From: a bacterium
GTDB lineage: Bacteria > Bacillota > Clostridia > Oscillospirales > Acutalibacteraceae
Assembly: GCA_963620555.1 (NCBI GenBank)
Contig: CAVFAN010000009.1
Span: 12,375-76,374 of the forward strand
Length of the DNA: 64,000 nt
Reading direction: 5' to 3'
Position numbers and translations under genes: made by a program. This document shows positions 31,247 to 34,766 of the stretch, piece after piece (within the stretch, counting starts at the first letter, position 1; every line of letters starts with the position of its first letter). A model generated the notes under the pieces. The model saw only the letters and a program-made list of their open reading frames with translations. It did not search any database and was not told the origin of the DNA.

Positions 31247-31792
31247 TCAGACCGATGCGAGGAAGGCGTCGGTGTCGGTGATCTCCGCGCCGTAGGTTTC
31301 CTTGAGATACTTCAGACCGTACTCGTAGTCCTCGGCGGTGAAGGAGTTCGTCGCGTCTTTGATAACAACAATGTCGTAGCCGAGCTGATAAGCGTCGGCG
31401 GAGGTGTGGCGCACGCACATGTGGGTGTGCAGTCCGGTCACAACAACGGTGTTGACGCCGAGCTCACGGAGCAGGAGGTCAAGGTCAGTGTGGAAGAATC
31501 CGCTGTAGCGTCTCTTGGGAACAACATAGTCGCTCTCGCAGAGTCCGAGCTCGGGAATGACTTTCGCGCCCTCGGTGCCCGCTATCGCGTGGTCGCCCCA
31601 GAGCTTAAGCTCGTGGTCTATGCCCTTGAGATGAGCGTCGTTGCAGAAGATAACCGGTATGTTTTTTTCTCTTGCGCCCTTGAGCAGCTCGGCGGTCTTG
31701 GGAACTATTGCAAGACCTCTGTCGCATTTGAGCGCACCGGTGACGAAATCGTTGAGCATATCAACGACAAGAATTGCATACTTCTTTTCCAT
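31247..31792 (-). CDS. Isochorismatase-family cysteine hydrolase (nicotinamidase-like)
   Basis: LVVDMLNDF and VVVTGLHTHMCVRHT motifs. Confidence 0.9.
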   Translation of the reverse strand: MEKKYAILVVDMLNDFVTGALKCDRGLAIVPKTAELLKGAREKNIPVIFCNDAHLKGIDHELKLWGDHAIAGTEGAKVIPELGLCESDYVVPKRRYSGFFHTDLDLLLRELGVNTVVVTGLHTHMCVRHTSADAYQLGYDIVVIKDATNSFTAEDYEYGLKYLKETYGAEITDTDAFLASV

Positions 31793-31964
31793 GATATTTT
31801 CAGCTCCTTGTGTGTTATGGTTAAATTATACCGATTTAAGCTGCGGGTGTCAATGACGATAGAAACAAAGAAAGCTCTCCTTTTCGGCGGGCTTTTGTGT
31901 GATATAATTTATTCATATCAATTTCCCGGGAAACGGAGAGTTTGAAATTTTTTTGATTTGCCTA

Positions 31965-31993
31965 TTGACAGGGTAGGCAATATGTGCTATATT
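31965..31993 (+). promoter_or_regulatory. Sigma-70-type promoter of the cysK leader
   Basis: TTGACA (31965-31970), a 17-nt spacer, then TATATT (31988-31993). Confidence 0.55.
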
Positions 31994-32039
31994 GTATCCA
32001 ACATAGCGCCGAGGTAGGCGTATGAAGGGAGAGAATGTT

Positions 32040-32153
32040 ATGAAAAAGACCGCCGTAAACCGAATGAACCGCCGTAGCCGCACCTGTTGTCAGTGCGCGT
32101 GTTTCTCCGTGTCTTTTTCCGAGATGTCCTCCGGATGCGGGTCGTTGAACTGA
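32040..32153 (+). CDS. Cys-rich leader peptide (37 aa) upstream of cysK
   Basis: AAGGGAG lies 8 nt before ATG 32040. The translation is MKKTAVNRMNRRSRTCCQCACFSVSFSEMSSGCGSLN, with four Cys in six consecutive codons (32085-32102). The stop codon lies inside a hairpin just before the terminator. It falls below the 60-aa cutoff of the ORF track. Confidence 0.5.
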   Translation: MKKTAVNRMNRRSRTCCQCACFSVSFSEMSSGCGSLN

Positions 32154-32173
32154 CCCGACAAAACGGCTTTTTG

Positions 32174-32208
32174 GCCGGGGGCACTCATCGGAGCTCCCCG
32201 GCTTTTTT
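32174..32208 (+). terminator. Intrinsic terminator in the cysK leader
   Basis: Stem GCCGGGG/CCCCGGC followed by TTTTTT, 48 nt before the cysK ATG. Confidence 0.78.
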
Positions 32209-32255
32209 ATTGCGCCGAAGCACAACTTTAACTGATTTCAAAGGAGTAATTCACT

Positions 32256-33188
32256 ATGTCAAAGATTTATACCTCAGCAGACCGGCTTATAGGCAACACC
32301 CCTCTTCTCGAGCTGACCCACATTGAAAAGAAATACGGACTCAAGGCGAAGGTGCTCGCAAAGCTTGAGTATTTCAATCCCGCAGGCTCCGTCAAAGACA
32401 GAATCGCCAGAAAGATGCTCGACGACGCAGAGACGGCGGGCAAGCTCACCCCCGATTCCGTTATCATCGAGCCGACCTCCGGCAACACCGGCATCGGTCT
32501 CGCCTCCGTCGCCGCCGCACGCGGCTACCGCATAATTATCGTTATGCCCGACACGATGTCAGTTGAGCGCCGCCAGCTGATGAAGGCATACGGCGCGGAG
32601 CTTGTGCTCACAGAGGGCGCAAAGGGCATGAAGGGTGCTATTGCCAAGGCTGACGAGCTTGCAAAGGAGATACCCAACAGCTTTGTGCCCGGTCAGTTCG
32701 TCAACCCCTCGAACCCCAAGGCTCACTATGAGACCACGGGTCCCGAAATATTCGAGGACACCGACGGCGAGGTCGATATCTTCGTCGCAGGCGTCGGCAC
32801 CGGCGGCACCATAACGGGCGTCGGCGAGTATCTCAAGGACAAGAAGAGCGGCGTGAAGGTCGTTGCGGTTGAGCCCGCGACCTCGGCGGTGCTCTCGACA
32901 GGCGTTGCGGGTGCGCATAAGATACAGGGCATCGGCGCAGGCTTCGTGCCCGATGTGCTTGATACGAAGGTCTATGACGAAATAATCCCCGTCAGCAACG
33001 AGGACGCGTTCGAGACGGGTAAGCTTATCGGCAAGAGCGAGGGCGTGCTGGTCGGCATATCCTCCGGCGCCGCCGCTTATGCAGCAATAGAGCTTGCAAA
33101 GCGCCCGGAGAACGAGGGCAAGACGATAGTCGTGCTCCTGCCCGACACAGGCGACCGCTATCTGTCAACTCCGCTTTTTCAGGACTGA
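32256..33188 (+). CDS. cysK: Cysteine synthase A (O-acetylserine sulfhydrylase)
   Basis: [12 protein letters not shown]-lysine motif, the TSGNTG loop, and full-length CysK collinearity. Confidence 0.95.
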
Positions 33189-33253: not shown

Positions 33254-34342
33254 ATGACCTTTAACCCCGATAACCCGCGCCGCAAGGCACTCATCGCGAT
33301 GAGCGGCGGGGTGGATTCGTCCGTCGCCGCATATCTCGCTAAAGAGAGCGGGCTTGACTGCATCGGCGTGACGATGAAGCTTTTTGACAACGAGGACGCA
33401 GGGATCAGCCGCGAAAAGAGCTGCTGCTCGCTCGAAGATACGGAATATGCGCGGGGCGTCGCCTACAGACTCGGGATGCCGTATTATGTCTTTAATTTCA
33501 CTGCGGATTTCAAAGAGCAGGTCATGCGCCGCTTTGCCGAAGCCTATGAGCGCGGCGCGACCCCGAACCCCTGCATAGACTGCAACAGATATCTGAAGTT
33601 CGACCGCCTCTATCGCCGCGCAAAGGAGCTCGGCTGCGAATATGTTGTCACGGGTCACTATGCGCGAATCGAAGAAGAAAACGGCAGATTCCTGCTGAAA
33701 AAGGCTGTTGACCCAACAAAAGATCAGAGCTATGTGCTCTATTCAATGACGCAGGACGAGCTGAGGCATACGCTTTTTCCGCTCGGCGGCATGACGAAAA
33801 CGCATACGCGGGAGCTTGCACACAAGCTCGGCTTCTATAACGCCGACAAGCCGGACAGCCAGGATATCTGCTTCGTGCCGGACGGCGATTACGCCTCATT
33901 TATCCGCTCGTTTACGGGAAAAGACTATCCGCACGGAGAGTTTGTTGACAAAAGCGGCAATGTGCTCGGCGGGCACAGGGGGCTTATAGGCTACACCGTC
34001 GGTCAGCGCAAGGGACTGGGAATATCGCTGGGTGAGCCGAAATATGTGACCGCCCTGCTGCCCGATGAAAATCGCGTCGTGCTCGGCGGCAATGAAGACC
34101 TGATGAGCCGCGACTTAGACGCGAAGAATTTCAATTTTATCGCCTTTGATAACCCGCCCGCGGTGTTCCGTGTGAGTGCGAGGGTCAGATACAGGCAGGC
34201 GGAGCAGCCCGCGACCGTGCGCGTCACGGGCGAAAATACTGTGCATATAACATTCGACGAGCCGCAGCGGGCAATAACCAAAGGTCAGGCGGTTGTCGTC
34301 TATGACGGCGATGTAGTTATCGGCGGCGGAGAGATCTGCTGA
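33254..34342 (+). CDS. mnmA: tRNA 2-thiouridine(34) synthase
   Basis: SGGVDSSVAA PP-loop and full-length MnmA collinearity. Confidence 0.95.
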   Translation: MTFNPDNPRRKALIAMSGGVDSSVAAYLAKESGLDCIGVTMKLFDNEDAGISREKSCCSLEDTEYARGVAYRLGMPYYVFNFTADFKEQVMRRFAEAYERGATPNPCIDCNRYLKFDRLYRRAKELGCEYVVTGHYARIEEENGRFLLKKAVDPTKDQSYVLYSMTQDELRHTLFPLGGMTKTHTRELAHKLGFYNADKPDSQDICFVPDGDYASFIRSFTGKDYPHGEFVDKSGNVLGGHRGLIGYTVGQRKGLGISLGEPKYVTALLPDENRVVLGGNEDLMSRDLDAKNFNFIAFDNPPAVFRVSARVRYRQAEQPATVRVTGENTVHITFDEPQRAITKGQAVVVYDGDVVIGGGEIC

Positions 34343-34364: not shown

Positions 34365-34766
34365 ATGATGATATCAACGCGGGGACGCTACGCTCTGAGG
34401 GTGCTCGTTGACCTTGCGGAGCATAGCGGTAGTCTTGTCCCGATGAAGGATGTCGCGGCGCGCCAGGGCATCTCGAAAAAATATATGGAGCAGATAATGG
34501 CTCTGCTCGTAAGGGACGGATATGTTGAGGGCGTCCACGGCAAGGGCGGCGGATACAGGCTCGGCAGACCGCCGGAGCAGTGCGTTGTCGGCGATATCCT
34601 GCGCCTGACCGAAGGCAGCCTCGCTCCCGTGGCGTGTCTCTCCTGCGAGGAGCCGTGCGGGCGTACGGACAGCTGCCGCACCATCGGGATGTGGCGCAGA
34701 TTCGAGGAGATAACGAACGAATACTTTGACGGCATAACAATAAAAGACCTGATGAAAACCGAATAA
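34365..34766 (+). CDS. Rrf2-family transcriptional regulator (IscR/CymR-like)
   Basis: STRGRYALRVLVDLA winged-helix N-terminus. Three Cys (CLSCEEPC...C) suggest an Fe-S ligand set. Confidence 0.9.
   Translation: MMISTRGRYALRVLVDLAEHSGSLVPMKDVAARQGISKKYMEQIMALLVRDGYVEGVHGKGGGYRLGRPPEQCVVGDILRLTEGSLAPVACLSCEEPCGRTDSCRTIGMWRRFEEITNEYFDGITIKDLMKTE

Follow-up and report, generated by a model that had tools for sequence, protein, structure and literature searches.

In Firmicutes, the control of cysteine synthesis is usually ascribed to T-boxes, S-boxes and CymR, and the locus considered here raises the question of what controls a cysteine synthase gene (cysK) whose leader harbors a short open reading frame (ORF) dense in cysteine codons and, beyond it, an intrinsic terminator. 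The locus lies within a stretch of 64,000 nucleotides from a member of the Acutalibacteraceae (contig CAVFAN010000009.1; the whole of that stretch is referred to below as the window), in which cysK is followed by mnmA and by a gene for an Rrf2-family regulator. An earlier note on this DNA had proposed that the leader is a candidate ribosome-mediated cysteine attenuator, and the analysis described here points in the same direction: the leader of cysK-mnmA-rrf2 is probably a transcription attenuator of the classical, ribosome-mediated kind, through which the supply of charged tRNA-Cys is sensed. That reading, which is built on comparison of sequences, is supported by (i) conservation of this upstream ORF (uORF), (ii) predicted pairing between a putative antiterminator strand and the terminator, (iii) recurrence of the arrangement in three leaders that cannot be aligned to that of the window, and (iv) the failure of the leader to match any family in Rfam.

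Layout and proposed operation of the leader

Direct reading of positions 31500-32700 bore out all of the coordinates that the earlier note had given for the cysK leader, including its length (approximately 256 nucleotides (nt) by the present reckoning, as compared to approximately 255 nt). Transcription is predicted to begin near position 32000, as judged from the position of a sigma-70-type promoter at 31965-31993 on the forward strand (the strand of all features of the leader and operon described here). The promoter is composed of a TTGACA hexamer (31965-31970), a 17-nt spacer and an extended -10 element (TG-n-TATATT, ending at 31993), with an 11/12 match; it is invariant among orthologues and points away from a divergent isochorismatase-family gene. 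The resulting 5' untranslated region, of approximately 40 nt, leads through a Shine-Dalgarno (SD) sequence, GGGAGAG at 32027-32033, which is conserved in orthologues, to a uORF of 37 codons at 32040-32153 (MKKTAVNRMNRRSRTCCQCACFSVSFSEMSSGCGSLN; ATG at 32040, TGA at 32151-32153), as had been claimed for a 37-codon ORF with a good ribosome-binding site (RBS). An upstream ATG at 32022, which would give a peptide of 43 amino acids (aa), was considered as the start and rejected in favor of 32040, because the frame leading from it is broken in the orthologue termed L082.

Four Cys codons of the uORF fall within six consecutive codons, TGT TGT (CAG) TGC (GCG) TGT at 32085-32102 (codons 16, 17, 19 and 21, beginning at 32085, 32088, 32094 and 32100), and form the proposed stall site; a fifth, TGC, is found at 32136. 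The stop codon lies, as first described, inside a hairpin (32136-32160, free energy (dG) -11.4) in which GGGTC (32139-32143) pairs with GACCC (32152-32156). Beyond it stands a strong intrinsic terminator, placed earlier at 32174-32208 and here at 32173-32208, which consists of a hairpin at 32173-32203 (dG -19.4) and a U6 tract at 32203-32208, and which was missed by a simple terminator scanner because its loop and bulge exceed the limits of that scanner. The segment CCTCCGG (32128-32134) is indeed complementary to CCGGGGG (32175-32181) in the 5' arm of the terminator, and the pairing extends further, such that a putative antiterminator 5' strand, UGUCC(U)CCGG at 32125-32134 ('region 2'), is matched to CCGGGGGCA at 32175-32183 and closes around the nested hairpin. 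The leader ends with the SD sequence of cysK (AAAGGAG, 32240-32246) and the coding sequence itself (32256-33188), whose product scores 452 bits against the TIGR01139 model (cutoff 351).

If the leader operates as proposed, a ribosome would load at 32027-32033 on a transcript begun near 32000 and would translate the 37-codon uORF, with an outcome that depends upon the supply of Cys-tRNA. When Cys-tRNA is plentiful, the ribosome would pass the Cys cluster and region 2, melt the nested hairpin and arrive at the stop codon at 32151, where its footprint and bulk would stop region 2 from reaching the terminator's 5' arm; the terminator would then form, and most transcripts would end (at approximately 32208) before reaching cysK. 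When Cys-tRNA is scarce, the ribosome would stall with one of the Cys codons of 32085-32102, most of them rare, wobble-read UGU, in its A site, and with its leading edge approximately 10-25 nt short of region 2. Region 2, being free, would pair with 32175-32183 over the nested hairpin and sequester the 5' arm of the terminator, and RNA polymerase would read into cysK-mnmA-rrf2. The direction of regulation fits the role of the gene, in that a stall would lead to more cysteine synthase.

The cluster of Cys codons is exceptional within the window. Runs of at least four Cys in six codons are found at 3 of 127,966 six-frame positions, and among those three only the run in the leader uORF lies in an open, ATG-started frame; approximately 0.006 such runs are expected per 256-nt leader. 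Cys accounts for 1.7% of residues in the long ORFs of the window, and no other SD-led, Cys-rich intergenic ORF preceding a gene was found across its 64 kb. The choice of codon is also skewed: TGT makes up 12% (34/274) of the Cys codons in the genes of the window and three of the four in the cluster (P = 0.007). A single tRNA-Cys is the norm in bacteria; its anticodon is GCA, and it reads UGU through wobble. Slow codons would make sense in a sensor that works by stalling, and a nucleotide-level constraint of another kind is also possible. Elsewhere in the window (48357/48381-48560, forward strand) an ORF of 59/67 aa with 11 Cys (containing CTHFNCNHRRGSYCCFQCQKIGTCKNPCYNSPLKCG) is situated among mobile-element or phage-like ORFs (approximately 47000-50000), and appears to encode a genuine small Cys-rich protein, not a leader peptide.

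Conservation and recurrence of the upstream reading frame

Relatives of the locus were fetched with the CysK protein as the best 80 loci of GTDB species representatives and the best 80 loci of metagenomes, and two of the metagenome loci, L081 and L082, proved to be orthologous over the whole leader. Their CysK proteins are 96% and 92% identical to that of the window, and their uORFs (MKKTAMNRMNRCNCACCQCACFVMSFSDMSSKCGSLN and MKKTAVNRMNCRNCVCCRCVCFFYTSSECGF, respectively) contain seven Cys each, two more than in the window, with the cluster growing to six Cys in 10 codons in L081 and six in 11 in L082. The window's five Cys codons are all present unchanged in L081 and L082 while adjacent residues change, and the block at 32085-32102 is invariant at the nucleotide level in a three-way alignment of window, L081 and L082 (alignment A1). 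The leader of L082 has suffered a 12-nt deletion that remains in frame, and a later 1-nt deletion that shifts the stop codon by a few nucleotides. A search of 20 further contigs added 15 more distinct leaders of the lineage, in all 15 of which the uORF is kept; three of them share a 9-nt in-frame deletion, and one is without one of the tandem Cys and retains the six others. Conservation of the uORF, upon which the proposal of the earlier note had been made to depend, was found throughout, with the uORF and its Cys cluster preserved in 18/18 distinct orthologous leaders despite in-frame deletions of 9 and 12 nt.

Differences at the level of strains are mostly amino-acid changes and fall outside the Cys positions, and the combination of a constrained frame and constrained regulatory codons with drift elsewhere is the pattern to be expected of a leader peptide and not of a small protein with a function of its own. 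Reading frames elsewhere, whether out of register or on the opposite strand, are broken in relatives and not conserved; these include a 32-aa antisense ORF (window 32090-32188, reverse strand) that is annotated in GCA_963658255.1 (L161, 1335-1433) and that was rejected as a candidate, being absent as a conserved frame from L081 and L082. The uORF itself was never called in the gene sets that were checked (the source genome and 20 related contigs), and the source genome carries the antisense ORF in its place. In a protein search, CysK variants that are 96-99% identical turned up on as many as hundreds of contigs each, and those variants that are named carry the labels Acutalibacteraceae or Oscillospiraceae. 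The gene upstream of the leader in a sister lineage (L162-L181) is a corA-family gene on the same strand, and that of the window is the divergent isochorismatase-family gene, which indicates that promoter, leader and cysK sit together in different upstream contexts.

Evidence of transcription comes from the sister lineage typified by L081. Four metatranscriptome assemblies from pig gut contain contigs of that type that start 16-58 nt downstream of the equivalent predicted transcription start site, while the DNA further upstream is represented on separate, thinner contigs; the position of these contig starts, just past the predicted site, lends support to the promoter assignment. In two of the four assemblies a single contig spans the uORF and terminator and continues into cysK, and in the other two the same stretch is covered by consecutive contigs. 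These assemblies show that read-through transcripts exist in the L081-type lineage, with DNA carry-over being possible and regulated termination not being measurable from contigs. The leader of the window itself was found in no public run, the best share of words being 0.18-0.24. Contigs from the runs searched yielded DNA variants only, apart from a 107-nt insert in a single run (X25), which covers window positions 32048-32154, lies wholly inside the uORF and has Illumina adapter on both sides; the library type of that run is unrecorded, and the insert is not interpretable.

The arrangement is also found outside this lineage. The leaders of three other loci (L004, L031 and L045) are non-alignable to that of the window at the nucleotide level, and yet each presents a Cys-rich uORF, then a terminator, then cysK. 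Their uORFs are MKSKLNSVCCECCMCACVAVPAIPETI in L004, MKKLCNRIMTRMCMPECICRCCTVYKCKLSSDASCGSYLAYFF in L031 and one containing AMCCARMLSARACLCGKVHLPQLRCCNA in L045; the L031 peptide partly resembles that of the window (in its MKK start, an NR..M.R motif and a C-terminal CGS), a resemblance that makes common ancestry possible for these two. When the cysK upstream regions were dereplicated at 85% identity, to 127, short ORFs led by an SD sequence and ATG and containing tandem Cys were found in 19 of them; the antisense strand gave 1, and 100 dinucleotide shuffles gave 0.67 +/- 0.88 (maximum 5).

Most of these tandem-Cys uORFs do not resemble that of the window in design, and are here termed class B, with the name class A being kept for leaders that combine a long poly-Cys uORF, an antiterminator and a terminator. 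Class B uORFs are 11-27 codons in length, SD-led, positioned 40-125 nt before cysK and usually without a terminator. They contain an invariant core, CGATGT(T/C)G, that reads (F/Y/L)-R-C-C or Arg-Cys-Arg, and they comprise 14 tandem-Cys loci (L008, L016, L020, L024, L070, L085, L089, L096, L102, L103, L105, L107, L128 and L130) and five single-Cys variants (L012, L053, L023, L025 and L084). The first Cys codon is TGT in 14/14 of the tandem-Cys members, and the Arg codon that precedes Cys is the rare CGA at 19/19 loci, whereas CGA makes up approximately 5% of Arg codons in neighboring long ORFs. RNAalifold gave 0 consensus pairs when a shared fold of class B leaders was sought, and some members have a downstream CAACAT(C) that is complementary to the core. 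Class B could represent a sensor of a new kind, one that works by programmed slow decoding or by arrest. Only tentatively, and with more doubt than confidence, can it be proposed that tandem-Cys uORFs of the two classes form a widespread, undescribed means of cysK control in gut Oscillospirales and in metagenome-assembled genomes (MAGs) of the same cysK clade, in which they would replace the Cys T-box of Clostridium.

The proposed competing helices

The ability of the leader to act as a switch would depend upon two mutually exclusive helices, and the duplex that region 2 could form with the terminator 5' arm was accordingly compared to shuffled sequences and across relatives. The antiterminator duplex of the window has a dG of -18.3, as compared to -13.8 +/- 2.2 for shuffles. 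In alignment A1, 25 of 27 cells of that helix are paired, versus 33-54% for registers slid by 1-3 columns, and L082 displays two compensatory pairs (U-A to C-G, and G-C to A-U). The terminator is paired in 91% of cells and shows one compensatory pair (in the same alignment, and with a shuffle control that is not significant), while the nested hairpin is paired in 83% of cells in the orthologues, through G-U pairs and changes of sequence.

A similar geometry is found throughout the six class A leaders. In all six, the segment best able to pair with the 5' arm of the terminator starts 13-24 nt past the last clustered Cys codon, and in five of them it ends 7-19 nt before the stop codon, within or adjoining the region that a terminating ribosome would occupy. 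That segment is thus predicted, in these six leaders, to start just past the leading edge of a stalled ribosome. In the four leaders that were taken as separate lineages, comparison of the duplex with shuffles gave P values of 0.034, 0.008, 0.008 and 0.248 (3e-4 when combined by Fisher's method). The antiterminator of L004, GCC-A-UUCCGG/CCGGAAGGC, encloses a hairpin with the stop codon, in the same arrangement as in the window.

Folding was carried out on the RNA lying 3' of the ribosome, taken alone, because constrained folding of the whole leader with a masked ribosome had produced unrealistic pairings across the ribosome and was rejected. When the RNA 3' of a stalled ribosome is folded in this manner, the antiterminator takes shape ahead of synthesis of the terminator's 3' arm in the window, L081, L082, L004 and L031, and in L004 and L031 it constitutes the minimum-energy structure even at full length. 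With the ribosome placed at the stop codon instead, nothing occupies the 5' arm and the terminator can form. When the full-length leader of the window is folded as untranslated RNA, the SD sequence of the uORF (32027-32033) pairs with 32125-32132 in the manner of a '1:2' helix.

Several points weigh against the attenuator as it is proposed here. The steps that would give the leader its function (translation of the uORF, stalling, kinetic competition between two structures, and a response to cysteine) are all inferred. The covariation described above comes from three diverged sequences, and its shuffle control is not significant; moreover, the claim in the earlier note of alternative helices held up in part, with compensatory pairs being present in L082 and the two lowest antiterminator pairs being lost, without compensation (GG to AA), in the abundant L081-type sister lineage. 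Individual duplex z-scores are modest, at -0.7 to -3.6. The terminator state in the lineage of the window is 2-9 kcal/mol more stable than the antiterminator, even with a stalled ribosome in place, and the choice made by the switch must consequently be kinetic, as is also the case for the trp switch of Escherichia coli. In constrained folds of the whole leader, the antiterminator already appears while the terminator 3' arm is yet to be made, and it does so without a ribosome as well. The '1:2' helix, which was considered as a conserved anti-antiterminator, is predicted in the window and in L081 and is removed in L082 by the 12-nt deletion, and it was therefore rejected in that role. The stop codon of L031 is separated by 1 nt from the terminator, and is a poor fit to the simple model. 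Finally, transcription in Bacillus subtilis runs largely uncoupled from translation, and if the same is true in this organism, then the timing of such a switch would be demanding.

Other explanations, related systems and the surrounding operon

The alternative that survives best, although still an unlikely one, is that the uORF does sense cysteine by stalling, and that its output is the translation of cysK, the stability of its mRNA or Rho-dependent termination, with the hairpin and U-tract acting as a constitutive partial stop or as a stabilizer. Such an output would agree with the design of most tandem-Cys cysK leaders (class B, at least 14 loci), which have no intrinsic terminator, and with the thermodynamic dominance of the window-lineage terminator in every modeled state. 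It also has a precedent in Actinobacteria. Cys-rich leader peptides without terminators have been predicted upstream of actinobacterial cys operons (PMC1262725), and Cys-rich small ORFs (sORFs) of Mycobacterium smegmatis have been shown experimentally to be cysteine-responsive translational attenuators, which unmask a downstream RBS (Canestrari et al., 10.1101/834739). Those polycysteine sORFs of the mycobacterial 'Cys ribulon' resemble the uORF described here in their position before genes of cysteine metabolism and in the use of ribosome pausing as the sensor; they differ in that they are leaderless, whereas the uORF of the window is preceded by its 5' untranslated region of approximately 40 nt and an SD sequence, and in that they lack terminators, whereas an intrinsic terminator and an antiterminator are found in this leader, in a different phylum. 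An RBS-sequestering duplex of the mycobacterial type was not found, the SD sequence of cysK (32240-32246) being in no predicted stable helix. In addition, the uORFs of the window, L004, L031 and L045 are always followed by a strong terminator, and the complementary strand keeps a constant spacing from the Cys codons, an arrangement that argues for termination as the output.

Less probable still is a terminator/antiterminator switch that responds to a different effector (a protein, a tRNA or an undescribed class of riboswitch), with the Cys-rich ORF being incidental or secondary. The earlier report that no T-box or S-box motif could be discerned in the leader was confirmed with Infernal and Rfam. 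Rfam 15, searched at gathering thresholds across the whole window, returned tRNAs only, and a permissive search of positions 31800-32400 (E up to 10) gave sub-threshold noise only: the T-box model (RF00230) matched at neither setting; the sole SAM-type aptamer to appear, SAM-SAH, reached 11.3 bits where the gathering score is 40 (E = 9.1), at the level of noise; and the best match, an sRNA model (anti-hemB, 20.7 bits against 49.5), aligned to the terminator alone. Nineteen related leaders, searched at gathering thresholds, likewise yielded no T-box, SAM or other family. Rfam covers described families only, such that an unknown aptamer is possible, and the invariance of CTGTTGTC and GTCCTCC at the nucleotide level may reflect a constraint upon the RNA in addition to that upon the codons. 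Against this, the folding energy of the leader is ordinary overall (z = -0.58), the frame survives the 9-nt and 12-nt in-frame deletions and gains Cys codons, the three non-alignable leaders have Cys-rich ORFs in common and not RNA sequence or fold, and the enrichment of tandem-Cys uORFs is specific to strand and frame.

It is less probable again that the ORF encodes a functional small Cys-rich peptide (with a role in metal or sulfur binding or in redox chemistry, or as the precursor of a ribosomally synthesized and post-translationally modified peptide) that is merely co-transcribed with cysK. The good SD sequence and the conservation within the lineage would agree with such a peptide, and the residues that are conserved are the Cys positions, as in metal-binding peptides. 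The length of the ORF (27-43 aa) and its non-Cys residues drift rapidly, however, to the point that the leaders are too diverged to be aligned by eye, and no genes for modification or export are adjacent. In a search of 5.8 billion predicted proteins no candidate was scored, too few 5-residue words being held in common with any of them, which limits the sensitivity of that search. A functional peptide would also leave the terminator after the ORF, the antiterminator strand inside it and the rare Cys codons unexplained. That a fortuitous short ORF simply happens to lie in a leader with a terminator, as might be entertained for GC-rich intergenic DNA in which short ORFs are frequent, is extremely improbable in view of the expectation of approximately 0.006 Cys clusters per leader, the conservation of the ORF and its recurrence in 19/127 regions against 0.67 in shuffles.

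The ribosome-mediated attenuator that is preferred here recalls the trp, his, leu, thr, pheA and ilv attenuators of E. coli and Salmonella, which share with it a promoter-proximal short ORF with a cluster of codons for the end product and an intrinsic terminator that precedes the biosynthetic gene. The antiterminator and terminator helices, which would exclude one another, and the proposed logic, in which a stall would lead to read-through, also follow the classical pattern. It differs from those classical systems in its amino acid (cysteine) and host (Clostridia, Oscillospirales), in having no sequence homology and no Rfam leader match to them, in the placement of the stop codon within a hairpin nested inside the antiterminator, and in a '1:2' partner that corresponds to the SD region of the uORF itself and that is not conserved. 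A further counterpart is the uORFC-8-2 motif (Brewer et al. 2021, PMC8632094), a predicted ribosome-mediated attenuator that lies before cysS in Rhodobacterales and in which tandem Cys codons (uORF positions 14-15) are likewise followed by an intrinsic terminator. That motif, for which Rfam has no model, belongs to cysS in alpha-proteobacteria, has two Cys codons only, located inside the first stem, and uses mostly UGC, whereas the uORF of the window uses mostly UGU.

Within Clostridia, the cysK-cysE genes of Clostridium perfringens are under the control of a Cys T-box, and clostridia without one must use other mechanisms (PMC2940859). The T-box system shares with the attenuator proposed here the gene (cysK), the signal (charging of tRNA-Cys), the output (regulated premature termination) and the bacterial class; it binds uncharged tRNA directly and requires no translation, such that the leader described here would be a functional replacement for it and not a relative. 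Control of terminators through uORFs does exist in Firmicutes, as illustrated by a predicted His leader peptide that precedes hisS paralogues and hisZ in bacilli (PMC2965389), and by antibiotic-sensing uORF attenuators such as msrD (PMC10314930); those systems involve other effectors and genes, and none is reported for cysteine or for Oscillospirales. The cysK leader is placed outside the T-box, S-box and mycobacterial leaderless-sORF families. The description of the mechanism as unusual stands in part: a full-text literature search found no Cys leader peptide reported from Clostridia, and Cys leaders were already known or predicted in Actinobacteria and for cysS in Rhodobacterales.

Two further elements surround the start of transcription. 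A palindrome, TGCCTATTGACAGGGTAGGCA, covers the -35 hexamer (31959-31979) and is probably a repressor operator, which would add a second layer of control at initiation; CCTATTGACAnnnTAGG (with up to 2 mismatches) is found in 24/127 of the dereplicated cysK upstream regions, versus 0.14 in shuffles. In these cysK promoters the palindrome takes the form (T)NCCTATTGACAnnnTAGG(N)A, centred on the -35 hexamer, and the loci that carry it include L004, L005, L012, L024, L025, L027, L029, L031 and L033, as well as, among others, L036, L040, L045, L048, L051, L060, L073 and L076; MAGs labeled Clostridia and Treponema are among them. A connection between the palindrome and an adjacent rrf2 gene through co-occurrence was considered and rejected (12/24 versus 63/103, P = 0.36). 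Immediately downstream of the predicted start, a 5'-terminal stem-loop (CAUA-CGCC ... GGCG-UAUG, 32002-32024) appears in every predicted fold and is kept by orthologues; it could be an mRNA stabilizer or a second operator, perhaps as a half-site related to the CCTA/TAGG palindrome, and class B leaders have a counterpart block, AACCTAC-N6-GGT(A/T)GG, directly after the -10 element.

The remainder of the operon consists of mnmA (33254-34342; MnmA model NF001138, 422 bits) and the Rrf2-family regulator gene (34365-34766). The assignment of the latter to Rrf2 was upheld by the superfamily model, the only one that it passed, and its description as CymR-like was not established (CymR model NF047409, 87.8 bits against a cutoff of 195); the score against IscR, 102.6 bits, is also below its NCBIfam cutoff of 207.55. 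The protein contains a C-x2-C-x3-C-x5-C stretch (VACLSCEEPCGRTDSC) that is typical of cluster-binding Rrf2 proteins, and rrf2 adjoins cysK in 96/160 related loci, in varying orientation. The mnmA gene is shortened in L082 (+1188 to +1439 from the start of cysK) and in L177-L181 (1700-2089), leaving a 129-aa product or an 84-aa match, while cysK and rrf2 are intact; decay or loss of a domain may have occurred in this tRNA thiolase gene.

Attenuation by leader peptides is mostly associated with Proteobacteria and Actinobacteria, and is considered ill suited to organisms in which RNA polymerase outruns the ribosome. If the attenuator proposed here is correct, it would extend ribosome-mediated sensing of amino acids to Clostridia, in an abundant gut lineage of Acutalibacteraceae/Oscillospiraceae, with related uORFs standing before approximately 15% of the cysK genes in the clade, and it would draw attention to dozens of small regulatory ORFs that annotation has missed. 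If class B is a sensor as well, then ribosome-based amino-acid sensing would be common in a clade of Firmicutes, where it is generally thought to be disfavored. The leader would also provide a compact and testable cysteine-responsive element for organisms with few genetic tools, and its fixed rare codons (UGU, and CGA-UGU in class B) permit a direct test of whether the choice of codon tunes the sensitivity of such a sensor.

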